Below, piece by piece: positions 43,755 to 56,307 of a DNA stretch of 64,000 nucleotides; within the stretch, counting starts at the first letter, position 1; each line of letters opens with the position of its first letter. The translations under genes were made by a program, and so were the position numbers. This DNA is from a virus, in the IMG/VR virus record IMGVR_UViG_3300028833_000003. One strand, given 5' to 3'. Below the pieces are notes generated by a model. The model was not told the DNA's origin. It saw only the letters and a list, made by a program, of their open reading frames with translations, and did not search any database.

Positions 43755-43773
43755 AAATTTTTTCAAAAAAGGA

Positions 43774-43802: not shown

Positions 43803-43852
43803 AGAGACACAAAAGGGAAAGGAAAATCCCCAACACCAGAAAGGAAACTACA

Positions 43853-44071
43853 ATGACGAAGATCTACACCGTGGCTGTGATGAACCGCTTTGAGAATGAC
43901 CACACTGAAACCAAGTATTTCACCACCAAAGAAAAAGCCATCAAGTATGCGGAAAAGATCAACGCCAAATACGAAGAAGCAAGAGCTAACAAAAATTATT
44001 TCGAGATGGTCTATCATGTGGCGATGGACTGGGGCATCAAAGAGGTTATGGCCGATGAAGAAGAGGAATAA
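43853..44071 (+). CDS. hypothetical early protein (72 aa)
   Basis: Purine-rich 45-nt leader, GAAAGGAAA RBS. Confidence 0.7.
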   Translation: MTKIYTVAVMNRFENDHTETKYFTTKEKAIKYAEKINAKYEEARANKNYFEMVYHVAMDWGIKEVMADEEEE

Positions 44072-44099
44072 AAATCCTCTTCTTTTTTTCAAAAACCTA

Positions 44100-44128
44100 T
44101 TGACAAATCCCGAAACGTATGTTATAAT
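44100..44128 (+). promoter_or_regulatory. promoter P13
   Basis: TTGACA, 17 nt, TGt+TATAAT. Confidence 0.8.
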
Positions 44129-44157
44129 TAAGCCATCAAATGAAGGAGGACGAAACG

Positions 44158-44310
44158 ATGATGAAGGTTTATCTGGTCTGGTATTTCAACCCTGAGGTGA
44201 GCGAAAATCAGGCGATGCTGTGGGGACTTTACACCACGAAAGAGAAGGCCGAGAAAGCGCTGACTGAGTGCGGATTTCATGGATGGATTAATGAAGAGGT
44301 CGCGGAGTAA
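44158..44310 (+). CDS. hypothetical early protein (50 aa)
   Basis: ATG follows GAAGGAGGA. The TAA sits in the GTAA loop of hairpin 44301-44316. Confidence 0.65.
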   Translation: MMKVYLVWYFNPEVSENQAMLWGLYTTKEKAEKALTECGFHGWINEEVAE

Positions 44311-44378
44311 TCCGCGGCCCTTTGCTTTGGGCCGGTCGCGCGCGGGCGTGCGCGACCGGAGTTGGCCTGCGTAATAGT
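44311..44378. repeat. GC-rich intergenic element, copy E3
   Basis: ...GGCCGGTCGCGCGCGGGCGTGCGCGACCGG..., with a 9-bp stem CCGGTCGCG/CGCGACCGG. Confidence 0.5.
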
Positions 44379-44384
44379 CTTGTA

Positions 44385-44612
44385 ATAATTTTGTAACAAA
44401 TTCGTAACACTTTTGTAACAAAATTGTAATCCCGAAATTGTTACGAAAGTATTAAATTTTTATTACAAAAATTTAATACTTTTTTAATAATATTTAATAA
44501 TTATAAGAAAAGAATAAAAAATCGTGGAAAAATGCGATTTAACATAATCTTAATACTTTTGTAACACTTTTGTAACAAAAAAAGTGATTTTGTAACACTT
44601 TTTTAACAAAAA
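44385..44612. repeat. AT-rich GTAACA/TGTTAC box cluster 1
   Basis: Exact GTAACA at 44393, 44404, 44415, 44561, 44572 and 44592. TGTTAC at 44439. 14-bp perfect inverted repeat AGTATTAAATTTTT/AAAAATTTAATACT at 44448-44480. Confidence 0.8.
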
Positions 44613-44616
44613 ACGC

Positions 44617-44645
44617 TTGACAAGTGCCCGTGTAGGGTGTATAAT
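44617..44645 (+). promoter_or_regulatory. promoter P14
   Basis: TTGACA, 17 nt, TGt+ATAAT. Confidence 0.75.
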
Positions 44646-44694
44646 GAAGTCACAAAAGAGGTCAAGGACAGACCGAAAAACCAGAAGGGGCAAA

Positions 44695-45201
44695 ATGATG
44701 ATGAACCGGAATTACAATCCCGCGTGCGCGATGAACAGCCTGTCTTATATGGTTACCAAATACCACAAGCTCTCCGCGTCTCACATTTACTTCTTCGGTT
44801 TTGAGTTTAACGGCGCTGTTTATGCCTACACCAGCAAGAACCTGCCCCGTAAAGTCCTCCGCACTGAAAAGGCTTCCTCTAAGAACGGCGGTTTCCGGCA
44901 AGTCAAGTTCCGCCCCACTAAGTTCTGGAAGATGGACATGATCCTCTCCGGCAAAGCTATCAAGGTCGCTGATATGGCCGACTTTATGGCTCTTGCTCCT
45001 AAGAACAAGGGTTGCAAGTTTGAAATGTGGGTAACTGAAACCTACACCAGCGAAAAGTGGGTCAAGGATAGCGTCCGGTTTGACAAGGCTGGCGATGTGG
45101 TCATCAACGGCGAAAACGTCCAGGTCAAGTTTGAAGGCGCCGAAGTCATCAACGAACGTTCTCTCCGCAATGCTTACTATGATGCGATGGGGCTGGCCTA
45201 A
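44695..45201 (+). CDS. hypothetical early protein (168 aa)
   Basis: ATG follows GAAGGGG. The ORF-track start 44617 lies in the -35. The TAA lies in the loop of hairpin 45186-45209. Confidence 0.7.
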   Translation: MMMNRNYNPACAMNSLSYMVTKYHKLSASHIYFFGFEFNGAVYAYTSKNLPRKVLRTEKASSKNGGFRQVKFRPTKFWKMDMILSGKAIKVADMADFMALAPKNKGCKFEMWVTETYTSEKWVKDSVRFDKAGDVVINGENVQVKFEGAEVINERSLRNAYYDAMGLA

Positions 45202-45237
45202 GCCCCATCCATCCCGGGCCCTATATGAAAAAAACTA

Positions 45238-45266
45238 TTGACAAAATCCAAATTATATGATATAAT
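45238..45266 (+). promoter_or_regulatory. promoter P15
   Basis: TTGACA, 17 nt, TGa+TATAAT. Confidence 0.8.
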
Positions 45267-45298
45267 CCAAATGTACCAAGAGAAAGGAAGTAATGAGA

Positions 45299-45736
45299 AT
45301 GACAAAGGCAATTTGGTTCGATATGGATGGCACAATCGCTGACCTATATGCGGTGGATGGCTGGCTGGCTGACCTGCAAGCGGAAAATACAAGGCCCTAT
45401 GATGAAGCGAAAGTGATGCACAATATGGCAAGGCTGGCGCGATTGCTGAACACTTTACAGCGCAATGGCTACACCATCGGCATTATCAGCTGGACCAGCA
45501 AATGCGGTTCTGACCTCTACAATGGCGCGGTCGCTCTGTCAAAACTCTGCTGGCTGAACAAACACTTGCACAGTGTCCAGTGGGATGAAATCAAGATTGT
45601 AAAGTATGGCACTAACAAGCGTGAAACCTGCGGAGATGGTATCTTGTTTGATGATGAAGAAGGAAACCGCAAGGCATGGGGCGAAAATGCTTATACACCT
45701 GACAAGATTTGGGAAGTGCTGACTGCTCTGCGGTGA
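45299..45736 (+). CDS. HAD-superfamily phosphatase, 5'(3')-deoxyribonucleotidase-like (145 aa)
   Basis: Motif I FDMDGTIAD (DxDGT) and a late LFDDEE acidic motif. The second ATG lies 8 nt after AAAGGAAG. Confidence 0.6.
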   Translation: MTKAIWFDMDGTIADLYAVDGWLADLQAENTRPYDEAKVMHNMARLARLLNTLQRNGYTIGIISWTSKCGSDLYNGAVALSKLCWLNKHLHSVQWDEIKIVKYGTNKRETCGDGILFDDEEGNRKAWGENAYTPDKIWEVLTALR

Positions 45737-45780
45737 AGCACTCCCAAACCCGGGCGCGAAAAAAAATTTTTAAAAACCTA

Positions 45781-45809
45781 TTGACAAAATCGCAATCATG
45801 CCTTATAAT
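45781..45809 (+). promoter_or_regulatory. promoter P16, with no ORF behind it
   Basis: TTGACA, 17 nt, TATAAT. Only about 55 nt lie between it and the next promoter. The transcript would start AATAACTGTCAAGAGGACGAGGGCGCGTCC (hairpin GGACG/CGTCC). Confidence 0.65.
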
Positions 45810-45868
45810 AATAACTGTCAAGAGGACGAGGGCGCGTCCCTGAGAGAAAAAAATCTCTTCAAACCCTC

Positions 45869-45897
45869 TTGACAAACCCTCAAAAGTATGGTACAAT
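45869..45897 (+). promoter_or_regulatory. promoter P17, with no credible ORF behind it
   Basis: TTGACA, 17 nt, TGg+TACAAT. Downstream there is only ATG-GTC-TAA, then about 100 nt before P18. Confidence 0.6.
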
Positions 45898-46012
45898 GAA
45901 CAAGACGAAAGGGGATGAGCCAAATGGTCTAAGCAAGCGTGGTGTGGGTGTGGGATGAGAAGCCCAACACAACAAGACCGCAAAAGTTCTCAAAAAAAGT
46001 TTCAAAAACCTC

Positions 46013-46041
46013 TTGACAAACCCAACCAACCATGATATAAT
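46013..46041 (+). promoter_or_regulatory. promoter P18
   Basis: TTGACA, 17 nt, TGa+TATAAT. Leader hairpin GTTCCAAGGGAAC at 46048-46060. Confidence 0.8.
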
Positions 46042-46117
46042 AAAGATGTTCCAAGGGAACAACAAAAACAAAAGGCAAGCGGATAAGCCCCACAAACCGC
46101 AGAAAGGAATTGATACT

Positions 46118-46492
46118 ATGACTACCACCATCACCAACATCTCTGCTCTGAACACTGCTATCGAAACTCTGACCGCTGTCGAAGGTATGGAAGAGGTTGT
46201 AACCAAGCTGACCAACATCAAGGCTTCTTATGAGAAGCGTGCGTCTGCGGAGCGCAAGCCCACCAAGGCGCAGATTGCCAAGAAGGAAGAGAACGCCGCT
46301 TTTGCGGAGGAAGTCTTTGAAGCAATCAAGGAAACTCCTGCGACTGCCAAGGCTCTGGCTGAGCGGTTCGCTGTCACTCCGCAGAAGATGACTTCTGCTC
46401 TGGTCGCTCTGCGCAAGGCTGGGCGCATCAATGACAAGGAACAGGAAAAGAAGTCCTGGCCTCACATCTGGCAGGTGGCTGTGGGCGCGTAA
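46118..46492 (+). CDS. winged-helix-like early protein, paralog 1 of 4 (124 aa)
   Basis: Shares ...EKR(A/S)..ERKPTKAQ..K.EEN... and the C-terminal S/TPxK(M/L)T(S/A)xL segment with 47412, 51857 and 53469. ATG follows GAAAGGAA. Confidence 0.7.
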   Translation: MTTTITNISALNTAIETLTAVEGMEEVVTKLTNIKASYEKRASAERKPTKAQIAKKEENAAFAEEVFEAIKETPATAKALAERFAVTPQKMTSALVALRKAGRINDKEQEKKSWPHIWQVAVGA

Positions 46493-46526
46493 GCGCCCCA
46501 GCCCTGGGCCCGGGCGAAAAAACTTC

Positions 46527-46555
46527 TTGACAAATCAATAGCAACATGATATAAT
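46527..46555 (+). promoter_or_regulatory. promoter P19
   Basis: TTGACA, 17 nt, TGa+TATAAT. Confidence 0.8.
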
Positions 46556-46581
46556 AATCATGTTGAAAGGAGCTGAACCAA

Positions 46582-47055
46582 ATGAACGCTATTCCCTCTC
46601 TTGACATTGTAAAAGAACTTGAACCGCTGACCGCTGTAGTGCGCGAGTTCGTAAAGAGCTTTGATGAAGAGTATGATGCTGTGCTTGGCCCTGGCTTCAT
46701 GGCTAACATGGACGAAGATGTAGTTGTCTATTCAATCGCAATGTCTGATGCTGGCGGGCAATCCTTCCGCGACAACTTTGTAAAGCGCTTTCCTAAGTGC
46801 GATTGTCTTTCAACCTTTGCGCTGTCTCTGTTCCATGAGGTTGGACACCTTGAAACAGAATGGGACATGGACGATGATGTGGAATTGCGCAACAGCGACA
46901 AGATGGACGATGAAACATACTATAATTTGCACAATGAGTGGATAGCTACACAATTCGCTGGTGAATGGGCCACTTCTCATTTGGAAAAAGCAAAACAATT
47001 TGATTTGAAATTCAATGAGGTTGCCCGCGCGATTATTGGCCGACTTTTGGATTGA
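46582..47055 (+). CDS. HExxH-motif protein, putative zinc metallopeptidase-like (157 aa)
   Basis: Contains LFHEVGHLE. GAAAGGAG RBS. Confidence 0.4.
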   Translation: MNAIPSLDIVKELEPLTAVVREFVKSFDEEYDAVLGPGFMANMDEDVVVYSIAMSDAGGQSFRDNFVKRFPKCDCLSTFALSLFHEVGHLETEWDMDDDVELRNSDKMDDETYYNLHNEWIATQFAGEWATSHLEKAKQFDLKFNEVARAIIGRLLD

Positions 47056-47065
47056 AAATTGAAAC

Positions 47066-47087
47066 CGCCCTTTTGTAGGGCGTTTTT
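47066..47087 (+). terminator. rho-independent terminator
   Basis: Stem CGCCC/GGCG(G) with a 7-nt loop, followed by a T5 run. Confidence 0.65.
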
Positions 47088-47089
47088 CA

Positions 47090-47190
47090 TTTTCATTTTC
47101 CCATTGCCCTCGGCCGGGCCGCGCGCGGTCGCCCAGGCTGCGTGCGGGCCGCATTTGCGCACCAACAGGCCCAACACAAAACCAAAACCA
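47090..47190. repeat. GC-rich intergenic element, copy E4
   Basis: ...CGGCCGGGCCGCGCGCGGTCGCC...GCGGGCCGCATTTGCGCACC...CCCAACACAAAACC... Confidence 0.5.
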
Positions 47191-47234
47191 AAATCAGCGA
47201 GCGAAAAAAATTTTAAAAAAATCCTAAAAACCTA

Positions 47235-47263
47235 TTGACAGGCACCCCATTTGGTGATATACT
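47235..47263 (+). promoter_or_regulatory. promoter P20, with no ORF behind it
   Basis: TTGACA, 17 nt, TGa+TATACT. The transcript would start with hairpin TGTTCCTGAGGGGAACA (47269-47285). About 70 nt before P21. Confidence 0.6.
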
Positions 47264-47331
47264 TATATTGTTCCTGAGGGGAACAGAAACGAAAAACCAA
47301 AAATGAAATTAAAAAAAATTTCAAAATGGTC

Positions 47332-47360
47332 TTGACAAACTGCTCACCCTCTGGTATAAT
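47332..47360 (+). promoter_or_regulatory. promoter P21
   Basis: TTGACA, 17 nt, TGg+TATAAT. Confidence 0.8.
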
Positions 47361-47411
47361 AAAAGAGAAGAAAGGGAAGGACACCCTACAAACCAGAAAG
47401 GAATTGATACC

Positions 47412-47777
47412 ATGACTAACAAAATGACTTACTCTGATGCCCTCCGCAACGCTATCGCCACTGTCACTGATGAAGCTACCAAGTCCCGCCTTGAAGATTT
47501 GCTGGTTTCCATTGAAAAGCGTTCCAACTCTGAGCGCAAGCCCACCAAGGCCCAGCTGGAAAAGCAGGAAGAAAACAAGGCCCTGGCTGAGGTTGTGTTC
47601 AAGGTGCTGTCTGCTCACAGGGTTGAAGCTTCTGTCGCTGAGCTGAAAAAGCTGGACGATCAGCTTGTCGATCTGTCCTCCCCTAAGCTGACCGCTGTGC
47701 TGAAAATCCTGATCGACCAGAACAAGGTTTCTAAGGATGACAGTGGAAGGGTTGCCAAGTACATCGCCCTTGACTAA
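47412..47777 (+). CDS. winged-helix-like early protein, paralog 2 of 4 (121 aa)
   Basis: Closest to the 53469 copy (…KKLDD.(L/F)VDLSSPK(L/I)TA(V/L)LKIL(I/M)D(Q/E)N…DDSGRVA(K/R)Y). Followed by a 10-bp hairpin with a GAAA loop (47784-47807). Confidence 0.75.
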   Translation: MTNKMTYSDALRNAIATVTDEATKSRLEDLLVSIEKRSNSERKPTKAQLEKQEENKALAEVVFKVLSAHRVEASVAELKKLDDQLVDLSSPKLTAVLKILIDQNKVSKDDSGRVAKYIALD

Positions 47778-47841
47778 CAAACAGAGGGCAGGGGAAACCC
47801 TGCCCTCCTCCCGCCCCGGGCCGAGAACCTTAAAAAAACTA

Positions 47842-47870
47842 TTGACAAGCTGACAATCCTGTGCTATAAT
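47842..47870 (+). promoter_or_regulatory. promoter P22
   Basis: TTGACA, 17 nt, TGc+TATAAT. Confidence 0.8.
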
Positions 47871-47905
47871 CTTATTGAAATCAATACGAAAGAGATGATG
47901 ACAAA

Positions 47906-48481
47906 ATGACAAGAGCAGAAATTATCGCCAATAATAATTTTGAAATCGCCAAAGAAAAATTTGAAAATGCAAGTCTGAGATGGTCTAATTATTGGTGGGA
48001 AGCTTGCGAAAAAATTTATAATGCAAGTAAAGAATGGGCAGAAAAATATATTCTTGATCCAGTAAAGCGTATTATCAAAAGAATTAAAAGAGTTTTAGGT
48101 GGCATTGATTGGAATGGTTTTGAACCCTTCCCGCATGGAGTACAGCAATTTTATTTGATTAGATTATTAAATGCCGAAGGTGAAAATGTTTGGAATAAAA
48201 TCGGCACTACATCTCGAGCAACATACATTCGCATGAAAGACCATCTAAAAAACGCTGACTATCGTAAGCATGGAGTAAAAACTATTCAAATCATCGGCCT
48301 GTGGGATTGTAAAAATGTAGACGCTGAAATTATTGAAAATCGCGTGCGCAAATATTTACGCAAAGATTACGAACAGCAATTCGTCCCAAATGATCGTTTT
48401 GAAATAGAATTTGATATTCCCTCCCTGTCTAAAATGATAGAAGAGACAATTGCATTTGAAAATAGTTTTATGTATAATTAA
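47906..48481 (+). CDS. T5orf172/GIY-YIG-like domain protein (191 aa) in an AT-rich insert
   Basis: The C-terminal half reads FYLIRLL..GE.VWNKIGTTSR...RMKDHL...AE.IE..VRKYL...NDRFE, which fits the KIGxT...R...E...F pattern of T5orf172 (recollection). Markedly more AT-rich than its neighbours. Confidence 0.45.
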   Translation: MTRAEIIANNNFEIAKEKFENASLRWSNYWWEACEKIYNASKEWAEKYILDPVKRIIKRIKRVLGGIDWNGFEPFPHGVQQFYLIRLLNAEGENVWNKIGTTSRATYIRMKDHLKNADYRKHGVKTIQIIGLWDCKNVDAEIIENRVRKYLRKDYEQQFVPNDRFEIEFDIPSLSKMIEETIAFENSFMYN

Positions 48482-48489
48482 AAAAGGGA

Positions 48490-48518
48490 TTGACAAATCC
48501 CTTCCCATGTAGTATAAT
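48490..48518 (+). promoter_or_regulatory. promoter P23
   Basis: TTGACA, 17 nt, TATAAT. Confidence 0.75.
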
Positions 48519-48544
48519 AATGGTGTTGAAAGGAGCTGATAAAC

Positions 48545-48694
48545 ATGGCGAACAAGAGCAAAAGCAAAGTCAAGAATAGCTATGAAATCAACAAAGGCAT
48601 TCGGCGCGATTGGGGCAACATCAACCCTGTTACAAAAATCATACCAGACAAGCGCAACAAGAAACCTAAGCACAAAAAAAATTGGGAAGAGTGA
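48545..48694 (+). CDS. small basic protein (49 aa, below the ORF-track cutoff)
   Basis: ATG follows GAAAGGAG. K/R-rich. TGA stop. Confidence 0.6.
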   Translation: MANKSKSKVKNSYEINKGIRRDWGNINPVTKIIPDKRNKKPKHKKNWEE

Positions 48695-48704
48695 TACACA
48701 CCTA

Positions 48705-48733
48705 TTGACAAATTTAAAAAAATGTGATATAAT
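48705..48733 (+). promoter_or_regulatory. promoter P24
   Basis: TTGACA, 17 nt, TGa+TATAAT. Confidence 0.8.
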
Positions 48734-48765
48734 AATTATAGAAAATCAGAAAGGAAGTGTGCGTA

Positions 48766-49215
48766 ATGGCAAAGCAACAGCGGCAACCCACTCCACCTAC
48801 CAGAGAATGGATTGATGAATGGATTGACAAGTATTTGGAAGAGCATCCAAATGAAATCATTGAAGATTTCCAAGGGCTGGAAGATCAAGCTGACTATGAG
48901 TGGTGGTGCAAAGAGATTGACGCAGGACGCCCCACACCTTACGACTTGACCAAAGAGCAAGAAAAGGAAAGCCACAAAGCAAGAGTAACGCCTGGCGGAA
49001 GTGGCAAGCCCAAGGCAAACACTGAGCGCAAGCGCAAGCCCAATGACACAAAGAGAACCATTATCGGCTGGGTTCAAACCTTGTTTGAAGGTTTCGCTCT
49101 TAATGACAAAGTGGCTAATGTGATTGTCTCCAATGTTGAAAGGTCAATAGATTTTGAAATGGATGGCAAGCATTATACATTGAGCCTGACAGAGCATCGC
49201 CCACCTAAAAAGTGA
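48766..49215 (+). CDS. early protein, family B paralog 1 of 2 (149 aa)
   Basis: Shares EQAD(Y/C)EW..K..DAG....YDLTKEQEKE..KA...RKRKP and the C-terminal ...HRPPK with 53968..54396. Confidence 0.7.
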   Translation: MAKQQRQPTPPTREWIDEWIDKYLEEHPNEIIEDFQGLEDQADYEWWCKEIDAGRPTPYDLTKEQEKESHKARVTPGGSGKPKANTERKRKPNDTKRTIIGWVQTLFEGFALNDKVANVIVSNVERSIDFEMDGKHYTLSLTEHRPPKK

Positions 49216-49262
49216 GCGGTGCTTTTTTTCGGCCCGGGCCAAAAATTTTTTTCGCAAACCTA

Positions 49263-49291
49263 TTGACAAACCTCTTTCAGAGTGCTATAAT
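49263..49291 (+). promoter_or_regulatory. promoter P25 (sole promoter for the five genes 49328-50495)
   Basis: TTGACA, 17 nt, TGc+TATAAT. Leader hairpin GTTCCAAGGGAAC at 49298-49310. Confidence 0.8.
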
Positions 49292-49327
49292 AACATTGTT
49301 CCAAGGGAACAGAAAGGAAGTAAAATT

Positions 49328-49564
49328 ATGAAACCTATCAAAATTGCTGGCACTGTCTTTGATGCTGATGCACTTTCTATTGAAGCAATTGATGCGTTAA
49401 TTGAAAAACTTGAAGAAGCAAAATGCACACAACGCCGCAAAAAGGCAGAAGAATACGCAGAGAAAATTCATAACTTAATTATCGAAGCAAAACAGCAAGA
49501 TTTAAATGTGATGATTGACAATGAATGGATCCCTGATGATTTCAGAGTTGATGTTTATATCTGA
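49328..49564 (+). CDS. hypothetical early protein (78 aa)
   Basis: GAAAGGAAG RBS. Confidence 0.7.
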   Translation: MKPIKIAGTVFDADALSIEAIDALIEKLEEAKCTQRRKKAEEYAEKIHNLIIEAKQQDLNVMIDNEWIPDDFRVDVYI

Positions 49565-49599
49565 TAATACAAATAAGCAATAGAAAGGAAATAAAAGCA

Positions 49600-49815
49600 A
49601 TGTATAAAACAACTTGGATGATCACTGATGAAAGTGATGAAGGCACATTCCAGACAGAGCTGACCTTGTATCATTTTGGCAAGCGTCCCAAGTTCCCTCG
49701 CTGGTACATGGGAGAAAATCATTCTTATCAGATTGAAATGATTTGGAATTTCCATCTGATTGTTCGCCCTTCTATTTTCTTTAAATGCCTGACCCATCAA
49801 TACATTATCAGATGA
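49600..49815 (+). CDS. hypothetical early protein (71 aa)
   Basis: GAAAGGAAA RBS. Confidence 0.6.
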   Translation: MYKTTWMITDESDEGTFQTELTLYHFGKRPKFPRWYMGENHSYQIEMIWNFHLIVRPSIFFKCLTHQYIIR

Positions 49816-49830
49816 AAGGAAGTATCCACA

Positions 49831-50115
49831 ATGAGAGACGCGAAAAAAGGAACTTATAATGATAGTTATACTTATTGCCCTGTTAATGCGTATGGAGATT
49901 GTCCTTACTGTGACCAAAGTGATGTATGCCACATCGATGATCCTCTCAAAGATTGCGATGACTGGGGCGCGTTTTGGGAGAGCTGGGAAGACTGGCTAAA
50001 CGCTGATGATGCAAACCCTGATGCACCAGAGGATTTTGCGGAAGATGAAATCCGCTGGGCTGGTGATGTGTATGGCTATGAAGATACAATGGAGGACAAC
50101 AATGAATACTTATGA
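49831..50115 (+). CDS. very acidic, Trp-rich small protein with an N-terminal Cys cluster (94 aa)
   Basis: GAAAGGAAG RBS. CPxxxxxxCPYC...C...C, followed by a D/E/W-rich tail. Confidence 0.7.
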   Translation: MRDAKKGTYNDSYTYCPVNAYGDCPYCDQSDVCHIDDPLKDCDDWGAFWESWEDWLNADDANPDAPEDFAEDEIRWAGDVYGYEDTMEDNNEYL

Positions 50116-50275
50116 AATCATGATTAATTATCTTAACTATGTATTTCCAAACAGAAAATTTAGTAAAGAATATTTAGACATCCTTTACGCTATCTTTATA
50201 AAGGGATATGGCGAAGGCGAACTCGCGGGAGAAATTGAAGCAAATAAATATTGGAGCGAAAGGAAAGAAAAATAA
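50102..50275 (+). CDS. hypothetical early protein (57 aa)
   Basis: ATG lies 5 nt after GGAGGA and overlaps the upstream gene by 14 nt. Confidence 0.5.
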   Translation: MNTYEIMINYLNYVFPNRKFSKEYLDILYAIFIKGYGEGELAGEIEANKYWSERKEK

Positions 50276-50279
50276 ATAA

Positions 50280-50495
50280 ATGTATAATTATAATAATGAC
50301 CCATTTGCGAAGGGCACACAAAAATATCAACAAGAGATAGTCGCAAAAGCATTAAATGACCATTTGCTCAAATGTGTTAAAAATAGTTATTGGTGCGCTC
50401 ATTGCTCTCTAAATCATAGTGGCATCTGCTTTTTTGCAAAAGAATGTTTTGAGAATGATCGAAAATATTATAGAGAAGATGATGAGGAGGAATAA
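50280..50495 (+). CDS. Cys-rich small protein (71 aa)
   Basis: ORF with a weak AAGGAAAG RBS and an acidic C-terminus. Confidence 0.55.
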   Translation: MYNYNNDPFAKGTQKYQQEIVAKALNDHLLKCVKNSYWCAHCSLNHSGICFFAKECFENDRKYYREDDEEE

Positions 50496-50535
50496 ACTTC
50501 TCATTTTGCCCGGGCCAAAAAATTTCAAAAAAGTA

Positions 50536-50564
50536 TTGACAAGCTGAAACAAATGCTGTATAAT
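50536..50564 (+). promoter_or_regulatory. promoter P26
   Basis: TTGACA, 17 nt, TGt+ATAAT. The leader GTAATCAAGAGGAGGTAATCAA is nearly identical to that of P27. Confidence 0.8.
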
Positions 50565-50593
50565 AGCTATGTAATCAAGAGGAGGTAATCAAG

Positions 50594-50746
50594 ATGAAGA
50601 CTTTGAAGGTGCTGGCTGTGATTGGTTGCTTACTGACTATCTGGGGTCTGGTGTGGGGTATCTTCATCAAAGATTTCATTTGGGGTGCGTTTGTTGGTCT
50701 GGCGCTAATAATGCCTTATCTGGTTTGGGGAGATGAGGAAGAATGA
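50594..50746 (+). CDS. small membrane protein (50 aa)
   Basis: AGAGGAGG RBS. Two hydrophobic segments. TGA overlaps the next ATG (ATGA). Confidence 0.65.
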   Translation: MKTLKVLAVIGCLLTIWGLVWGIFIKDFIWGAFVGLALIMPYLVWGDEEE

Positions 50747-50901
50747 AAAGAAGTCTTTACAAGCGTTATGATGATTTAGCCTGCTGGGATTTGGACAAAG
50801 GATGTAGGCGCATCATTGACCAGTCTCGACCTGGTAGGCGTCGCCTGAAAAAGGTTCTTCGGCGTCAAGCGCGCAAGCGGTTAAATCAGCGGGAAGAATA
50901 A
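50743..50901 (+). CDS. small Arg/Lys-rich protein (52 aa)
   Basis: ATGA-coupled to the upstream gene. Confidence 0.5.
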   Translation: MKRSLYKRYDDLACWDLDKGCRRIIDQSRPGRRRLKKVLRRQARKRLNQREE

Positions 50902-50933
50902 CCGCCCGGGCGAAAAAAATTTCTAAAAAGCTA

Positions 50934-50962
50934 TTGACAACCTATCAAGATGGTGCTATAAT
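50934..50962 (+). promoter_or_regulatory. promoter P27
   Basis: TTGACA, 17 nt, TGc+TATAAT. Confidence 0.8.
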
Positions 50963-50991
50963 AAGCATGTAATCAAGAGGAGGTAATCAAA

Positions 50992-51507
50992 ATGACTAAG
51001 AACACTTACGAAGCTCGCGCCTATAAGTTCGCCACTTTCCTTGCTCGTCTGTTTGCTGGTTGCTCTTCTCTGGAAGATTTCATGTGGGCGCTGGACTATT
51101 ACAACGCTACGCACTCTCGCAAACTGCGCTGGGCGCATGGTGTTTCTCGCATTGCGATTATCCGCTCTGACTATGTTATCAAGTTTAACATGGTGCCTGA
51201 TGAAGAATGGGAAGATGGTCGCGCTGGCAACTGCGAAAGCGAAGAAGCGGTCTATGAGCGCGCCTGCGAAGATGGCTTTGAGTATCTGCTGGCTAAAACC
51301 ACTGTTTGCACCATCGAAGAACACACTTTCTCTATCATGCCTCGCATTAACCATGTGAATGATTGGACACGCGACTGGACAGAGTATTGCACTGATGAAG
51401 AATATAACTGGCTGGTGCAAAATGTGAATGACTTGCATGAAGGTAATGTGGGATACAGAAATCGAAAAGTGTGCGTAATCGACTACGCCTGGGACGCGGA
51501 AATGTAA
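50992..51507 (+). CDS. atypical protein-kinase-like early protein (171 aa)
   Basis: Contains DLHEGNVG....VCVIDYA, which looks like a DxHxGN catalytic loop plus a DFG-like IDY, and an upstream VIKF Lys. The TAA lies in a hairpin loop (51496-51512). Confidence 0.4.
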   Translation: MTKNTYEARAYKFATFLARLFAGCSSLEDFMWALDYYNATHSRKLRWAHGVSRIAIIRSDYVIKFNMVPDEEWEDGRAGNCESEEAVYERACEDGFEYLLAKTTVCTIEEHTFSIMPRINHVNDWTRDWTEYCTDEEYNWLVQNVNDLHEGNVGYRNRKVCVIDYAWDAEM

Positions 51508-51595
51508 TCCGCGCCCTTTTGCGTTCGACCGCGCGCTGCCGGATGTGGCGCGCGGCATTTGCCCCACAGCATACCCCACACAATTTTCGGCGCGA
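51508..51595. repeat. GC-rich intergenic element, copy E5
   Basis: ...CGACCGCGCGCTGCCGGATGTGGCGCGCGGCATTTGCCCCACAGCATACCCCACACAATTTT... Confidence 0.5.
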
Positions 51596-51637
51596 AAAAA
51601 AGTTCAAAAAAAACTTCAAAAAAATTCCTAAAACCTA

Positions 51638-51666
51638 TTGACAAGACCAGCGAAAGCGAGTATAAT
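51638..51666 (+). promoter_or_regulatory. promoter P28, with no credible ORF behind it
   Basis: TTGACA, 17 nt, TATAAT. The transcript would start AATAACTGTCAGGAGGG, the same 5' end as P16. About 100 nt before P29. Confidence 0.6.
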
Positions 51667-51768
51667 AATAACTGTCAGGAGGGCAAGAGAACATCCTCTC
51701 CCCTGATGGCACTGGCAAGGACGCTCTGACAAGATGCGGAAACTTCAAAAAAAAGTTTGAAAAACCCC

Positions 51769-51797
51769 TTGACAAAGCGCTGAAAGTGTGATACAAT
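51769..51797 (+). promoter_or_regulatory. promoter P29
   Basis: TTGACA, 17 nt, TGa+TACAAT. Confidence 0.75.
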
Positions 51798-51856
51798 AAG
51801 GATGTCAAATGAAGGGGAGCTGATAAACCCCACAAACAGAGAAAGAGGTAGATACC

Positions 51857-52240
51857 ATGATGAACACCAAGATGACTAACAAGAGCGCTCTGTCCTTTGT
51901 CCTGACCAACTGCGAAGTGCCTGCGGATGTCAAGGAGCGTCTGGAAGCGATGCTGGCTTCCCTTGAAAAGCGTTCTGAGAACGCCAAGGGCAAGGAGCGC
52001 AAGCTGTCTCCCAAGCAGGAGCAGGAGCGCAAGGAGCGTGAGGAGTTCCGCTCCAAGGTGTATGAGACTATGTGTGAGAACCTGAACTTCGAATACACCT
52101 GCAAGGGTCTGGCTGACCTGTTCGCTGTCTCTTCTCCCAAGATGGCGAACGCTCTGACCAAGCTGGTTGAAGCTGGCAAGGTTGAGCGTCTGGTTTCCAC
52201 CACCAACAAGTCCAAGGTGTGGTTCAAGGTGGTAGCGTAA
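51857..52240 (+). CDS. winged-helix-like early protein, paralog 3 of 4 (127 aa)
   Basis: Divergent copy (…LEKRSENAKGKERKLSPKQEQE…SSPKMANALTKL…). The TAA lies in the GTAA loop of the 9-bp hairpin 52228-52249. Confidence 0.7.
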   Translation: MMNTKMTNKSALSFVLTNCEVPADVKERLEAMLASLEKRSENAKGKERKLSPKQEQERKEREEFRSKVYETMCENLNFEYTCKGLADLFAVSSPKMANALTKLVEAGKVERLVSTTNKSKVWFKVVA

Positions 52241-52297
52241 GCTACCACCGCCCCACCTGGGGCGCGCCGGGGCCGAAAAAAAATTTTTAAAAACCTA

Positions 52298-52326
52298 TTG
52301 ACAAAGCTTTAAAACCGCTGTATAAT
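52298..52326 (+). promoter_or_regulatory. promoter P30
   Basis: TTGACA, 17 nt, TGt+ATAAT. Confidence 0.8.
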
Positions 52327-52372
52327 AAACATGTTCCAAGTGAGAACAAAAGAAAGAAAGGATTTGATAACA

Positions 52373-53029
52373 ATGGCTTCTAAGTATAATGACATTTTTG
52401 GTGATACTGAGACGCTGGGTCCGCTGGATAGCCCCATCATTTACAATGGTTACATGCATTGCAGGGAAACAGATGAAGAAGTAAATGCACTGATTAATGA
52501 ATATTTCTTCAACCTTGAAAAATTCGCCACAGCGTATTATGCAAACAAGCGTCCGCAATATTTGGACGATTTGTGGGACAGCAAAATCTTTGCTGAAAAT
52601 TTTTGGGACTTCCGCAAAAAAGTGCTTGCCATGCTCAACCCCAATAAAAAGAACAGATTTTTCGCTCACAATGCGAGATTTGATGTTATGGCATTGAATA
52701 ACACTTGCAGAGCGTTAAGCGATGGAAAAGTGAAATATTTCTTCCCCTATGAAGTTGAAGTTTGTGATACTCTCAAAATGGCGCGTCAAGTTGTCGCAAA
52801 AATGCCCACCTACATCAAATACTGTCAAGAGAATGGATACATGACCAAGCACAAGACGCCCAGGGTTCGCCTGACCGCTGAAATTCTTTACAGATTTATT
52901 ACAAAAGATGAAGAATTTAATGAAGAGCACAGAGGGAAAGAAGATGTTCTGATCGAAGAAAAAATTTATGACTACATCAAGAGACAGCATAAAAAGTGCA
53001 ATCCTGCGCTCTACGCCCGCAAGGCATGA
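52373..53029 (+). CDS. DnaQ-like DEDDh 3'-5' exonuclease (218 aa)
   Basis: ExoI GDTETLG, ExoII FFAHNARFDV and ExoIII EHRGKEDV (H-x4-D). ATG follows GAAAGGA. Confidence 0.55.
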   Translation: MASKYNDIFGDTETLGPLDSPIIYNGYMHCRETDEEVNALINEYFFNLEKFATAYYANKRPQYLDDLWDSKIFAENFWDFRKKVLAMLNPNKKNRFFAHNARFDVMALNNTCRALSDGKVKYFFPYEVEVCDTLKMARQVVAKMPTYIKYCQENGYMTKHKTPRVRLTAEILYRFITKDEEFNEEHRGKEDVLIEEKIYDYIKRQHKKCNPALYARKA

Positions 53030-53081
53030 GCGCAGGCGGCCCGGGCCGAAAATTGTATACAAAAAAAATTTCAAAAACCTA

Positions 53082-53110
53082 TTGACAAGAACCTGAATCA
53101 GCAGTATAAT
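53082..53110 (+). promoter_or_regulatory. promoter P31, with no credible ORF behind it
   Basis: TTGACA, 17 nt, TATAAT. The transcript would start with hairpin GTCCC/GGGAC. About 130 nt before P32. Confidence 0.6.
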
Positions 53111-53239
53111 ATAAGTGTCCCAAGGGGCAAGGGACAGTCAAGGCCAGGTTGCCGAAAGTCAACAGAGACAATACGCATGGACTACAGAAACATTTGGCCA
53201 TTAGCAAACACAATGTGCGAAAAAAGTTTGCGAAACCCC

Positions 53240-53268
53240 TTGACAAAGCCCACAACCTGTGGTATAAT
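53240..53268 (+). promoter_or_regulatory. promoter P32, with no credible ORF behind it
   Basis: TTGACA, 17 nt, TGg+TATAAT. About 120 nt before P33, with no ATG after the AAAGGAAAGGGG. Confidence 0.6.
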
Positions 53269-53391
53269 GCAAATGTAAGATAAAGGAAAGGGGAAAAATA
53301 AAAAGCCACCCCAATCCCAATGCGCAAAAATGCAAGGCTTTGCTTCCATGTGCTTCTTACAAAGTCAAGAAATAAAAAATAAAAAAAGTTC

Positions 53392-53420
53392 TTGACAAAC
53401 ACCACAAAGCATGATATAAT
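53392..53420 (+). promoter_or_regulatory. promoter P33
   Basis: TTGACA, 17 nt, TGa+TATAAT. Leader hairpin TGTTCCAAGAGAACA at 53426-53440. Confidence 0.8.
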
Positions 53421-53468
53421 AAAGATGTTCCAAGAGAACAAAAGGAAAAAAAGAAAGAGGTAATGAAA

Positions 53469-53858
53469 ATGACTAACATCACCAAGAACATGAAGTACGC
53501 TGACATCCTCTCCATCCTGCATGGCGAAAATCCTGCCTATGGTTGCTCCATCGAAACTCTGACCGCTTTCATCGAACATGAAATGGAACTGACCGCGAAA
53601 AAGAACGCGGCTCCCAAGAAGCCTTCCAAGGCTCAGGTGGAGAAGCAGGAGGAGAACAAGGTTCTCGCTCAGACGCTGTTTGAAGTCCTCGCGGCTCATG
53701 GTAAGGATGTAAGCGTCGCGGAAATCAAGAAACTGGATGATCGCTTTGTGGATCTGTCCTCTCCCAAAATCACTGCGCTGTTGAAAATCCTGATGGATGA
53801 AAACCGCATGGTCAAAGATGATAGCGGAAGGGTGGCAAGGTATCAGGTTCTCGCCTGA
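53469..53858 (+). CDS. winged-helix-like early protein, paralog 4 of 4 (129 aa)
   Basis: The second ATG lies 8 nt after AGAGG. Close paralog of 47412..47777. Confidence 0.75.
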   Translation: MTNITKNMKYADILSILHGENPAYGCSIETLTAFIEHEMELTAKKNAAPKKPSKAQVEKQEENKVLAQTLFEVLAAHGKDVSVAEIKKLDDRFVDLSSPKITALLKILMDENRMVKDDSGRVARYQVLA

Positions 53859-53910
53859 TACCTCCGCCCCTCGCGGGCCCGGGCGCGAAAAAAACATTTT
53901 CAAAAAGGTA

Positions 53911-53939
53911 TTGACAAGCTGATTGCAAGGTGCTATAAT
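53911..53939 (+). promoter_or_regulatory. promoter P34
   Basis: TTGACA, 17 nt, TGc+TATAAT. Confidence 0.8.
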
Positions 53940-53967
53940 AGAACCATCGAAAGGAGCTGATGACAGT

Positions 53968-54396
53968 ATGACGAAGGAACAGTACATTGAACAGTATCTC
54001 GATGAGTATGAGCGCAAGCACCCTGATGAACGAATTGATTATGAAAAGTTGCGTGAGCAGGCTGACTGTGAATGGTATGACAAGCAGGTAGATGCAGGCA
54101 AGAAGACTGAATACGATTTGACCAAGGAGCAAGAGAAGGAAGCCAAGAAGGCTCGACAGTATGCCAAGTCTGACAAGGAGCGCAAGAAGGTTGTGCGGGA
54201 GCGCAAGCCTGATGAGGACAAGCGCGAAATCATCGAAGTCATTGCACAGAATTTGAAGCGCGTTTGTACTGAGGATGACCAAATGGCAAAGGAAATCACT
54301 GTTGTAAATCCTGAGCGTGAAGTCACCTTTATTTTGCGGGGCGTTGAATACAGCGTCCAGGTTATCAAGCATAGACCGCCCAAGGCCCCTCAGTGA
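53968..54396 (+). CDS. early protein, family B paralog 2 of 2 (142 aa)
   Basis: ATG follows GAAAGGAG. The TGA lies within hairpin 54384-54402. Confidence 0.7.
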   Translation: MTKEQYIEQYLDEYERKHPDERIDYEKLREQADCEWYDKQVDAGKKTEYDLTKEQEKEAKKARQYAKSDKERKKVVRERKPDEDKREIIEVIAQNLKRVCTEDDQMAKEITVVNPEREVTFILRGVEYSVQVIKHRPPKAPQ

Positions 54397-54432
54397 GGGG
54401 CCGCCCGGGCGAAAAAAAATTTTTAAAAAGTA

Positions 54433-54461
54433 TTGACAAGTGCGCGAATGGATGCTATAAT
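54433..54461 (+). promoter_or_regulatory. promoter P35
   Basis: TTGACA, 17 nt, TGc+TATAAT. Leader hairpin at 54467-54484. Confidence 0.8.
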
Positions 54462-54500
54462 AATGGTGTTCCAAGAGAGAACAGAAAGGGCTGATAAAGA

Positions 54501-54731
54501 ATGTGTGATTGTGTAGCAAGTGCAATGTTAAATGATTACGAGCGACAAGCATGGACCTTTATCGAAAAGGGAACCCGCATCATTAAACTTTGCACAGAAT
54601 TAAGACAATTAAATTGTAACAAAGAAACTGTTGATTTTGCTTTGGTGTGGTTAGAACGCTCAAAGAAAACTCCTGAGGAAATTATTCAAATGGTCAAGCT
54701 CTATCACAAAGATTTGGAGGATGAAAAATGA
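54501..54731 (+). CDS. hypothetical early protein (76 aa)
   Basis: GAAAGGG RBS. ATGA overlap with the next gene. Confidence 0.7.
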   Translation: MCDCVASAMLNDYERQAWTFIEKGTRIIKLCTELRQLNCNKETVDFALVWLERSKKTPEEIIQMVKLYHKDLEDEK

Positions 54732-54937
54732 ATATTGTGGCGCGTGGGTATAGCATTTCACTGAACAAAGAGGAAGAAAATTTTACAAACAAGATAGTCG
54801 ATTTTGTTGATAAGCTGGAAAAGGAAATCTTTGAAGCTGGTGCATTACCTCCTGATGATTTGCAAACAGTTTTTGATGCTTTAAGAGATAACGCCTGCAA
54901 GCTCAGAGACAATGAATTTTATGATGAAGGAGAATAA
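54728..54937 (+). CDS. hypothetical early protein (69 aa)
   Basis: Translationally coupled (ATGA). A GGAGGA lies inside the upstream gene. Confidence 0.65.
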   Translation: MNIVARGYSISLNKEEENFTNKIVDFVDKLEKEIFEAGALPPDDLQTVFDALRDNACKLRDNEFYDEGE

Positions 54938-54945
54938 AAAAAGTA

Positions 54946-54974
54946 TTGACAATCCTTCCCACCTGTGTTATAAT
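54946..54974 (+). promoter_or_regulatory. promoter P36
   Basis: TTGACA, 17 nt, TGt+TATAAT. Leader hairpin at 54980-54996. Confidence 0.8.
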
Positions 54975-55016
54975 GAACATGTTCCAAGAGAGAACAAAAG
55001 AAAGGAAAGATAAACT

Positions 55017-55217
55017 ATGAATGAAGAGCGTTGCCCATATTGCCAATCTGAAAACTTCATCACTGATGATTATGAAGAAGATTATGCCGAACAGGATAAA
55101 ATCACCTTGTACTGGAAATGCAAATGCAACAACTGCGGTAAAGAATTTCACATCCAAGAATGGTACAAGTTACAGCGCAAAACCATCTCGACCGCGGAAC
55201 AGTGGGAGGAAGAATAA
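55017..55217 (+). CDS. zinc-ribbon small protein (66 aa)
   Basis: CPYC...CNNC. GAAAGGAAAG RBS. Confidence 0.7.
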   Translation: MNEERCPYCQSENFITDDYEEDYAEQDKITLYWKCKCNNCGKEFHIQEWYKLQRKTISTAEQWEEE

Positions 55218-55418
55218 ATGACTATCCAGCGTCGCATTGTATTAGATGATGAAGAACAGAACCTGATTACTCAGGTGGATGATTTGATTACTCAGGTTTA
55301 TAATGAATTAGATTCCTCTGATAAGGAGGGCCTCAAAAAGATAATGGCTTTAACAAATGCGTTAGCCGATTTCGCCTATGATTATGGGTCTGATGACTAT
55401 CGAAGTGGGTGCCTGTGA
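55218..55418 (+). CDS. hypothetical acidic early protein (66 aa)
   Basis: ATG directly follows the upstream TAA. A GGGAGGA lies in the upstream gene. Confidence 0.65.
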   Translation: MTIQRRIVLDDEEQNLITQVDDLITQVYNELDSSDKEGLKKIMALTNALADFAYDYGSDDYRSGCL

Positions 55419-55419
55419 C

Positions 55420-55510
55420 CGCAGGCGCCCGCTTGTTTTTCGCCCGGCCGAGCACCATACGTGCGCAGGCCGCAATTTTGTCAAGACTAACCCCACACAA
55501 TTTTTACGCA
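55420..55510. repeat. GC-rich intergenic element, copy E6
   Basis: ...CGCCCGGCCGAGCACCATACGTGCGCAGGCCGCAATTTTG...AACCCCACACAATTTTT. Confidence 0.5.
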
Positions 55511-55745
55511 AATTTTACGATTTTGTTACAATTCTGTTAATTTTCCCGAAACTTTTGTTACAAAAGTATTAAATTTTTGTTACAAATTATTAAATTTTTA
55601 TTAAATTTTTGTAATAATTGTAATAATTTTGTAATATTTTAAATTGTTACGAAAGTATTGCGAAATTGTTACAGATTTATTACGAAATTGTTACAAAACT
55701 TAACAAAATCGTAACATTTTTGTAACATTTGACCCACTTTTGTAA
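55505..55745. repeat. AT-rich TGTTAC/GTAACA box cluster 2 (homologous to cluster 1)
   Basis: TGTTAC at 55524, 55556, 55578, 55645, 55667 and 55689. GTAACA at 55711 and 55722. Shares TCCCGAAA.TTGTTAC.AAAGTATTAAATTTTT and AAATTGTTACGAAAGTATT with 44430-44462. Confidence 0.8.
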
Positions 55746-55756
55746 AAATTTGGCCC

Positions 55757-56113
55757 CATATGCACCTGGGCGGCGCGTTCACGCGCCATATGCGCCGCGC
55801 CCACGAATTAATGCTAATGCTACACTCATATGCGCCGAAAATGCGGCATCCGCGGGCACGCAGATAATTTCCCTTAATCCATATGAAATCGCCGCGTTTT
55901 TTCTTGCGCACGATTACAGAATCGCAAGAAGCACCAATGACCCTCATATGCTCTCATTTCCTGACCACGGGCGTAGCAAAATCTTCCCCTCTCTGAGCCC
56001 ATTTTAAGACAAAGGGAGCGACCCGACCGGGTTTTCCACTTATCTATTAATAACCCGACCGGTGCGCATACTTTTTTCCACACTACCGACCGGGTTTTCC
56101 ATAGTCCCATATG
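55757..56113. repeat. dispersed (C/T)CATATGC motif, six copies in non-coding DNA
   Basis: Copies near 55757, 55786, 55826, 55879, 55945 and 56107. Confidence 0.5.
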
Positions 56114-56296: not shown

Positions 56297-56307
56297 CTGC
56301 ACATTAT

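Follow-up and report, generated by a model that had tools for sequence, protein, structure and literature searches.

What do two dense clusters of a single hexamer do in the genome of a large phage? In IMG/VR virus record IMGVR_UViG_3300028833_000003, an uncultivated gut/rumen phage, two short AT-rich stretches are crowded with copies of TGTTAC (GTAACA on the other strand), and we followed them up in a window of 64,000 nt of this virus; the full contigs of its relatives are longer, and our statements on this genome are limited to these 64 kb. Judging from comparison with related loci, the two clusters are copies of a cassette that is conserved across a family of SPβ-like, TAG-recoded phages of ~130–190 kb. 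We consider it somewhat probable that they are cooperative operator-type (iteron-like) arrays for one sequence-specific factor, amplified in this lineage.

The hexamer occurs 43 times in the window, compared with 28.5 ± 4.4 times in shuffled sequence, and 15 of these copies are confined to two short stretches. Seven lie at 44393–44597 (cluster 1; 44393, 44404, 44415, 44561, 44572 and 44592 on the minus strand and 44439 on the plus strand), and eight lie at 55524–55727 (cluster 2; 55524, 55556, 55578, 55645, 55667 and 55689 on the plus strand and 55711 and 55722 on the minus strand). Both clusters are ~240 bp long and 80% AT. When each ~245-bp cluster was shuffled 5000 times with its dinucleotides preserved, the mean was 0.30 hexamers for cluster 1 and 0.37 for cluster 2, with a maximum of three in 5000 trials, and none of the 75 further 250-bp windows with an AT content of 75% or more contains above one hexamer. 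A sequence-only reading of this DNA had reported the same seven and eight copies, and the ground for refutation that it had named, a frequency no higher than in equally AT-rich non-coding DNA of this genome, is removed by these comparisons.

Both clusters are tandem arrays of an 11-bp unit (AAATTGTTACAAAA, printed in 11-nt register), and the spacings between their hexamers are multiples of 11 bp. The autocorrelation at lag 11 reaches 0.52 in cluster 1 and 0.57 in cluster 2, above the 0.46–0.47 found at the 99.9th percentile of the null, while two AT-rich control regions show no lag-11 peak; Tandem Repeats Finder reports arrays of period 11 and period 22. When the 15 exact copies are aligned with their flanks, they yield the extended consensus AAAT-TGTTAC-(A/G)AAA, in which the hexamer is invariant (15/15) and the flanks vary, and it follows from this consensus that the quasi-palindrome TTGTWACAA, described by the sequence-only reading as TTGT(A/T)ACAA, is valid for most copies. 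The longer blocks that had been said to be shared between the clusters are also real: the exact 19-mer AAATTGTTACGAAAGTATT occurs in the window only at 44435 and 55641, with zero occurrences expected, and the block TCCCGAAA..TTGTTAC.AAAGTATTAAATTTTT is common to both, with a 3-nt indel between the copies.

We gathered ~35 related loci by four routes, namely pattern scans of IMG/VR, alignment of an early exonuclease-like protein (52373–53029), contigs with a close homolog of p44695 (the gene next to cluster 1), and contigs from metagenome-assembled genomes (MAGs). The pattern scans, which asked for three boxes at 11 or 22 bp, returned ~220 loci, mostly unrelated phages whose own iterons contain TGTTAC (L148/L188, L161/L167 and L160 are examples) and which were rejected on inspection. 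The closest relatives are L259, whose p44695 is 88% identical, and L256, a 140.5-kb contig whose terminase (TerL) is 86% identical. Absence from close relatives had been named as grounds for dropping the clusters, and they are present: cluster 1 is found in L259 with 12 exact boxes and the 11-bp phase kept, and cluster 2 has an orthologue with five boxes in L256. Units that are degenerate in the window (ATTAAA, ATTACA, GTAATA) are perfect boxes in L259, and the L259 positions matching an AT-rich spacer of cluster 1 (44446–44540) carry TGTTAC boxes. Between L259 and the window, then, boxes and phase are conserved, and whole units have been gained or lost. A 29-nt stretch shared with L256 had no match in a metagenome scan.

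The cassette is homologous in ~30 of the related loci. It begins with the terminator of the upstream gene and continues with a GC-rich hairpin of variable sequence, a leftward promoter (ATTATA-N17-TGTCAA on the plus strand), ~9 nt, a box, the core TCCC(G/A)AAA and further boxes; at its right end there is often a consensus rightward promoter, with a box ending 8–9 nt before the −35 element. The variable-sequence hairpin stands at an equal position in every cassette of the relatives, and in the L256 copy it begins 6 nt past TTGACA. The sequence-only reading had noticed that both clusters follow a GC-rich element (E3 and E6), and each does lie behind an intrinsic terminator and a GC-rich hairpin; these elements are not independent features, however, as the hairpin is part of the conserved cassette. 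Nor does the 11-kb separation of the clusters have any special meaning, given that the distance between cassettes is 11.1 kb in the window, 10.2 kb in L247, 2.4 kb in L245 and 1.1 kb in L256.

What lies beside the cassette also varies. Its rightward promoter drives a p44695 homolog in the window, L259, L243, L245, L247, L240 and L246, a winged-helix paralog in L256, and small open reading frames (ORFs) in L233 and L238, and the p44695 orthologue of L256 has no array. Cassettes often precede winged-helix paralog genes (L256, L232, L245, L240). The arrangement of cluster and promoter seen in the window next to p44695 recurs in L243, L247, L249 and L259.

The position of the boxes relative to promoters is strongly patterned. 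When 855 promoter-like sites of the related loci were examined, the gap separating a box from the −35 element behind it peaked sharply at 9–10 nt (37 TGCACA and 7 TGTTAC cases), with secondary peaks at 19–20 and 31–34 nt, and these peaks imply that the boxes are in 11-bp helical phase with the promoter. The MAG-binned relatives have the arrangement TGTAATA-N4-GTAACA-N9-TTGACA, and in L256 one box falls within a promoter spacer. Furthermore, the box is TGTTAC in one clade and TGCACA (as TTGCACAA) in the other. All cassettes of a genome agree, with TGTTAC at both sites of the window and of L256 and TGCACA at both sites of L245 and of L247, and no genome among the related loci mixes the two. The two box types separate cleanly on the tree of the exonuclease-like protein, and the core TCCCGAAA, the A/T-rich flanks and the geometry remain constant while the box type switches. 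Genomes of the TGCACA clade carry up to six box-bearing promoters per ~20-kb locus, mostly leftward cassette promoters.

Register and concerted box identity together argue for a sequence-specific reader that acts in trans. The clade switch in particular points to a protein that reads bases, and it would not be expected from AT-richness or curvature alone. Thus, the proposal of the sequence-only reading that a regulator binds a dense array of dimer-type sites is supported in part, by the register in ~30 loci and by the clade-wide switch of the box. Among the functions that it had offered, a regulator-binding array fits best, origin-like unwinding is weakened, and early shut-off and nucleoid-protein nucleation are neither favoured nor disfavoured.

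In the mechanism that we propose, each 9-bp box TTGTWACAA would bind one dimer, and the 11-bp spacing would place successive dimers on one face of the helix, which could allow cooperative binding and the formation of a nucleoprotein filament or a bend. The basic cassette has two to four boxes at a fixed site just upstream of the −35 element of a leftward and/or rightward sigma-A-type promoter; tandem amplification has raised this number to ~12–22 units per site in this phage and those most closely related to it, and their leftward promoters have decayed. The boxes stand where the other early promoters, ~35 in number, have an A/T-rich UP-like tract, which suggests that binding makes these promoters conditional. 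Cluster 1 would make its rightward promoter, P14, and p44695 conditional on the factor. Cluster 2, promoter-less at the end of the early block, may be a high-capacity site that serves as a boundary or sink, possibly pairing with cluster 1. Repression or temporal gating appears more likely than activation because the promoters are already consensus. As for the reader, it could be one of four winged-helix paralogs encoded in the early block or a host regulator; among phage proteins the paralogs are the strongest candidates, since in relatives a cassette often stands before a gene of this family, an arrangement that would fit autoregulation.

Several points weigh against such operator arrays. The readers named above are candidates only. 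The recognition helix of the winged-helix paralogs differs between the two clades, but this difference is confounded with phylogeny, and at several TGTTAC-clade loci a paralog of this kind is missing from the nearest 10 kb. At P14, every box is upstream of the −35 element, where a classical repressor would not be expected, and an activator hardly seems needed at a promoter that already matches the consensus perfectly. As cluster 2 is without a functional promoter on either side, controlling a promoter cannot be all that it does. The 11-bp-phased T-tracts, with the curvature that they predict, could contribute without a dedicated protein. Finally, two relatives carry perfect DnaA boxes at the equivalent upstream position, which means that the reader could be a host protein and that the role could be replication or titration.

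Very little is known about how genes are regulated in the large, uncultivated phages with recoded stop codons, and the cassette offers a concrete cis-regulatory handle. The box switched once between two clades and so provides a natural specificity-swap comparison, and the arrays are large enough to pull down the reader, whose identity would define the early regulatory circuit. Should the reader prove to come from the host, it would reveal in what way these phages connect with, or upset, host physiology. The principle of phased operator or iteron arrays is known; the further interest here is their occurrence in a conserved, clade-switching cassette of an unstudied family of recoded phages.

Among known systems, the closest in geometry is parC of plasmid R1, which also has tandem 11-bp units in two sets beside a promoter. 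In R1, there are five 11-bp iterons in each of two sets; every iteron takes up one ParR dimer, and the promoter is repressed. The dimers bind cooperatively, the DNA is intrinsically curved, and the array also serves as the operator of the promoter (PMC2241845). However, P14 lies downstream of both sub-arrays of cluster 1 (44374–44444 and 44539–44608), whereas the R1 promoter lies between its sets, and the boxes of the window occur in both orientations, at two distant loci and in an early cassette that is found across a phage family. No ParM-like or ParR-like protein, ribbon-helix-helix protein, or actin-like or Walker ATPase was recognised by Pfam or PHROG matches among 27 early-block and flanking proteins, which include the products of the genes beside either cluster.

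The functionally closest system in a related phage is that of SPβ, a cultured phage which resembles this virus in its terminase, a YonG-like protein and its genome layout. In SPβ, a repeated element, SPBRE, occurs in ~10 early promoter regions and is the operator of the master repressor MrpR (PMC10516654). The likeness is that an element recurs in early promoter regions, at two sites here and at up to six promoter-linked sites per locus in relatives. SPBRE differs in that its sequence, ~CAAATACAAAWAATATGTATA as derived here from six SPβ promoter regions, is present in a single copy per promoter, usually between promoter and ribosome-binding site, and is neither related to TGTTAC nor arranged in tandem or at an 11-bp phase. 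The SPBRE motif has one 10-mer match in the window, at 57045, outside the clusters, and tblastn with YopR, YopQ, YonR, YopS, YopO, YopB, AimR and YonN found no match in the 64-kb window or in 26 related loci. We therefore reject the identity of the boxes with SPBRE, as the motif is unrelated and MrpR (YopR) was not found in the window or those 26 loci.

A different explanation is that the boxes are sites of a global regulator of the host and that the amplified arrays titrate this regulator, as a decoy or sponge, or sense the state of the host. We think this unlikely, but it is a serious alternative, given that some relatives hold arrays that exactly match host regulator sites. For instance, L242 has four perfect DnaA boxes at 173–217, spaced by 12 bp and abutting the promoter of a p44695 homolog, where the TGTTAC boxes sit in the window, and L243 has three at 1100–1143, ~430 bp upstream of its TGTTAC array; these boxes (TGTGGATAA/TTATCCACA) lie in non-coding DNA upstream of p44695 homologs. 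The operator of Rex is represented as well. Its consensus in Clostridiaceae is TTGTTAA-N4-TTAACAA (PMC8457756), and L238 carries 25 sites within two mismatches of it, six of them perfect, and L233 carries five perfect sites; the arrays are at 49–296 and 4126–4680 in L238, at 2412–3040 in L233, and at 606 and 721 in L246/L248. In addition, protein identity between these phages is just 35–50%, and yet they strictly keep to no more than two discrete box types, which a conserved host protein would explain easily, and a cluster 2 with no promoter to control suits a sink.

The TGTTAC boxes themselves, however, fit neither regulator. The Rex half-site TTGTTAA/TTAACAA is one base from TTGTTAC/GTAACAA, and Rex half-sites are also 11 bp apart from centre to centre (PMC8457756), but the boxes are mostly direct repeats, their inverted pairs are separated by N5–N6 rather than N4, and neither cluster has a site within two mismatches of the 18-bp operator. 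The Rex identity was rejected on these grounds, and the DnaA identity was rejected because no 9-mer of the TTATCCACA type occurs in the clusters. Moreover, the box could not be matched to any known host regulator motif, a literature search for it gave nothing relevant, and the assignment of the host to Clostridia comes only from MAG binning. A broader version, which we regard as doubtful, is that the family slots interchangeable arrays of host-regulator sites (DnaA, Rex, or TGTTAC/TGCACA) into its early cassette as a sponge or host-state sensor. If so, the arrays might strip the regulator from the chromosome when the DNA enters or gate early development on its availability, and this gating could perhaps extend to DNA entry, as has been proposed for the injection stop signal (iss) region of phage T5.

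Replication offers another possible role. The arrays could be iterons that flank an AT-rich unwinding element and bind an initiator, with cluster 2 as a second origin or handcuffing locus. Iteron arrays are found at theta-type origins such as those of P1 (incC/incA), R6K, lambda (ori) and SPP1 (oriL/oriR), and P1 incA/incC and SPP1 oriL/oriR are precedents for a second array. The window shares with them helically phased direct repeats (here at 11 and 22 bp) that adjoin AT-rich DNA and the promoter of a gene, and a second, homologous array in another part of the genome; the centres of the clusters are 87–92% AT and there is an inverted repeat, cluster 1, as in an iteron replicon, immediately precedes a gene that has a promoter of its own, cluster 2 is within 4 kb of Rep-like and DnaD-like genes, and the DnaA boxes of L242 and L243 are near the equivalent region. 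On the other hand, theta-type iterons are asymmetric and 17–22 bp long, and the unit here is 11 bp with a 9-bp palindromic box. The AT-rich neighbour consists of decayed units, and no conserved initiator is adjacent, since the gene 3′ of the cassette may be a p44695 homolog, a winged-helix paralog or a small ORF, and p44695 has no DNA-binding or Rep signature. Iteron origins occupy one or a few loci per replicon, but relatives have many promoter-registered cassettes, up to six box-bearing promoters per ~20 kb, mostly leftward, and the boxes keep register with −35 elements. An origin at the clusters is thus quite unlikely, and there is a more canonical initiator-plus-repeat candidate at 58.1–58.9 kb.

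At that place, an ORF at 58193–58891 (minus strand, containing TAG) encodes two winged-helix domains and has weak PHROG matches to DnaD-like loader and replication-initiation families. It is flanked on both sides by a 24-bp repeat, TACCCAAGTATGGTAGAT (58136–58200 and 58855–58890), and has homologs in L237 and L238, and it is plausible from this layout that the ORF and its repeats form an initiator-plus-iteron origin. Nearby, a 21-bp repeat (ACACATCCACAATTTTTAAGG) is present in 3.5 copies at 56946–57018; its core, ATCCACA (56951–57020), resembles a DnaA box with 8/9 matches at best, and a weakly RepA_N-like gene is found at 59566–60321.

The boxes might also have no dedicated reader. In this case, they would be an A/T-rich, curved upstream element, amplified by slippage, that acts through DNA shape or the alpha subunit of RNA polymerase or is simply neutral. 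Nearly every unit is a T4–5 tract plus GTAACA at 11-bp phase, which predicts curvature, R1 parC is likewise intrinsically curved (PMC2241845), array length differs by whole units between close relatives, and the boxes stand where ordinary early promoters have a UP-like tract. Nevertheless, the hexamer is invariant in all 15 copies despite its variable flanks, the sister clade has TGCACA throughout in its place, within an unchanged architecture and A/T flanks, and other, equally AT-rich DNA of the window lacks it. Together, these three facts argue for base-specific recognition, and we consider the absence of a reader improbable.

The clusters could also be signals for genome ends or DNA entry: the edge of a long terminal repeat, the point where a first-transferred segment stops, as at the iss of T5, or recognition sites for packaging. 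The host-takeover region of SPO1 is located in its terminal repeat, and the early block of the window (40.1–55.4 kb), with ~35 strong promoters before tiny genes, adjoins the terminase end of the late block and resembles such pre-early or host-takeover regions in the terminal repeats of T5 and SPO1. Its last part is a 0.9-kb untranslated region packed with repeats (55419–56320, with cluster 2 only), which recalls the T5 iss region at the end of a very early gene block, and L122, a 7-kb related contig, ends 55 bp past its nine-box array. The iss region is untranslated and contains many repeats, palindromes and DnaA boxes (bioRxiv 10.1101/866236), but its defining set of eight DnaA boxes is absent from the clusters, and cluster 1 lies in the middle of the early block. 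This explanation is very unlikely: cassettes whose spacing ranges from 11.1 to 1.1 kb by genome cannot bracket a conserved repeat (so that two edges of a fixed terminal repeat were rejected), several lie inside the early block of relatives, the other contig ends examined are not at cassettes, and the L122 break may be an assembly break at repeated sequence.

Operator arrays remain our preferred reading, and the genome around them is that of a TAG-recoded, SPβ-like phage. The minus strand from 1 to 40 kb has few long ORFs under the standard code. When TAG is read as sense (minus strand, 40–40057), ORFs of 2326 aa (40–7020), 1094 aa (6990–10274) and 4559 aa (10343–24022) appear, terminase and portal become full length, and a normal gene set of terminase, portal and capsid region is obtained; no suppressor tRNA is present within the window. 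The nearest terminases (33–48% identity) belong to Enterococcus phages VRE9_4, H1 and EF1, Geobacillus phage E3 and Brevibacillus phage Sundance (‘YonF’), which are large Firmicute siphoviruses related to SPβ. The layout also matches that of SPβ, in which the late block is on the minus strand and closes with portal, terminase and YonG, and a block of small early genes on the plus strand comes next. Related contigs are 130–193 kb long, and three relatives were binned with Clostridia MAGs. Megablast of 43–57 kb against cultured phages gave no match. Rfam searches of the window and six relatives found nothing for the hairpins, the only matches being two to tRNA models, both in relatives, the weaker of which was not confirmed by ARAGORN.

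The plus-strand early block (40.1–55.4 kb) uses the standard code and contains ~40 small genes. There are 35 near-consensus promoters (TTGACA-N17-TATAAT) in ~14 kb (40100–55000, plus strand), each before a tiny gene, and most have an upstream A/T-rich UP-like tract (AAAAAAATTTTTAAAAAcCTA) and a GC hairpin, a layout reminiscent of promoter–stem-loop cassettes. The four winged-helix paralogs of the block (~96–129 aa; 46118–46492, 47412–47777, 51950–52240 and 53469–53858) appear, with weak support, to have a MarR-like C-terminal winged helix. There are also two paralogs of a ~145-aa protein (48766–49215 and 53968–54396), and both families recur in relatives.

Cluster 1 is preceded by the intrinsic terminator of the previous early gene (44158–44310), which has a 9-bp stem followed by a T-rich tail (44298–44319, plus strand), and by E3, the hairpin element of the cassette, at 44332–44359 (CCGGTCGCGC-gcgggcgt-GCGCGACCGG). 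Sub-array 1a (44374–44444) has about six 11-bp units, with exact boxes at 44393, 44404 and 44415 (minus) and 44439 (plus), degenerate GTAATA/TGTAAT units and the conserved core TCCCGAAA at 44430–44437. The spacer at 44446–44540 is 87% AT and consists of decayed 11-bp units; it holds the perfect 14-bp inverted repeat that the sequence-only reading had placed at 44448–44480, with arms at 44448–44461 and 44467–44480 and a 5-nt spacer. Sub-array 1b (44539–44608) has GTAACA at 44561, 44572 and 44592 and TTAACA variants at 44539 and 44603. The leftward promoter is decayed here, with TTACAA-17-ACTCCG as its best fit. As had been suggested, the cluster abuts P14, the rightward promoter of the cassette (TTGACA-17-TATAAT, 44617–44645, plus strand, 12/12 consensus match), and its final box ends 8 nt short of the −35 element.

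The gene behind P14, p44695 (44695–45201, plus strand), encodes 168 aa and belongs to a family with one to three paralogs per genome, often 3′ of a cassette. It has no Pfam, PHROG or PDB sequence match, and Foldseek found no match with E below 0.25 for its mediocre AlphaFold model (predicted local distance difference test score of 64). No close relatives of p44695 were found in IMG/VR.

Cluster 2 follows the intrinsic terminator (55403–55434, plus strand) of the last plus-strand early gene (55218–55418), in agreement with the suggestion that this cluster ends the early block. Next come E6, the imperfect hairpin of the second cassette (55441–55473), whose L256 orthologue is a clean hairpin (GGCCTGTGCAC-ggac-GTGCGCAGGCC), and a minus-strand TTGACA at 55479–55484, the relic −35 element of the leftward promoter. 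Its best −10 element is TATGGT with a 19-nt spacer, where relatives have the consensus TTGACA-17-TATAAT, and it is probably inactive. There is no functional promoter on either side of cluster 2 and no rightward promoter. Array 2 (55501–55750) has ~22 units of 11 bp with eight exact boxes, the core TCCCGAAA at 55544–55551 and a centre (55560–55645) that is 92% AT, and it is orthologous to 17.24–17.45 kb of L256. The rest of the non-coding region (55757–56296) has two kinds of repeats, six CATATG-centred boxes at 55757–56113 and six (A)CCCGACCG(G) boxes at 56023–56295, which brings the repeat families of 55419–56320 to three; CATATG and (A)CCCGACCG(G)/CCGG-type repeats also follow the orthologous array in L256.

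In several relatives (L232, L233, L234–L238, L240, L245), the leftward part of the cassette forms units that are antisense to early genes, of which we counted 24 non-redundant examples (for instance, at 3288 and 8714 in L245 and at 9451–11974 in L238). The unit reads TTYGGGA-N15-TTTGTGCAAA-N9-TTGACA-N17-TATAAT-GGAAWTTTCG and is followed by a GC-rich stem-loop of 9–13 bp and variable sequence, CCNACAAAAAAA and the terminator of the upstream gene. These hairpins could be short RNAs or DNA hairpins; a comparison of the strands gave 19 versus 23 G·U pairs and equal energies.

Other repeats were noticed near the origin candidate. Six copies of TTTTGAAA(T) lie within ~100 bp of non-coding DNA (57948–58050) upstream of a minus-strand gene (57506–57880). 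The adjacent segment at 57895–57950 is repeated at 59261–59314 and 59498–59553 as 56-nt inverted and direct repeats that are 78–80% identical, and these look like copies of one promoter or 5′-leader region in opposite orientations.

Further repeats occur in relatives (among L243, L242, L246, L221 and L251–L254): an intergenic palindrome family AGTTAG-N4-6-CTAACT beside CCGCCGGC, a second family CTTTAA-N4-TTAAAG, and 7–14 copies of AGCTGGAA after the TGTTAC array. In L122, the terminase gene (9–2860) is interrupted by ~1.2 kb between two homologous segments, and a split terminase is also seen in Enterococcus phage EF1, where the annotation has an HNH homing endonuclease at this place. The early block of L245 contains a tRNA-Lys gene (anticodon TTT) at 9431–9504.

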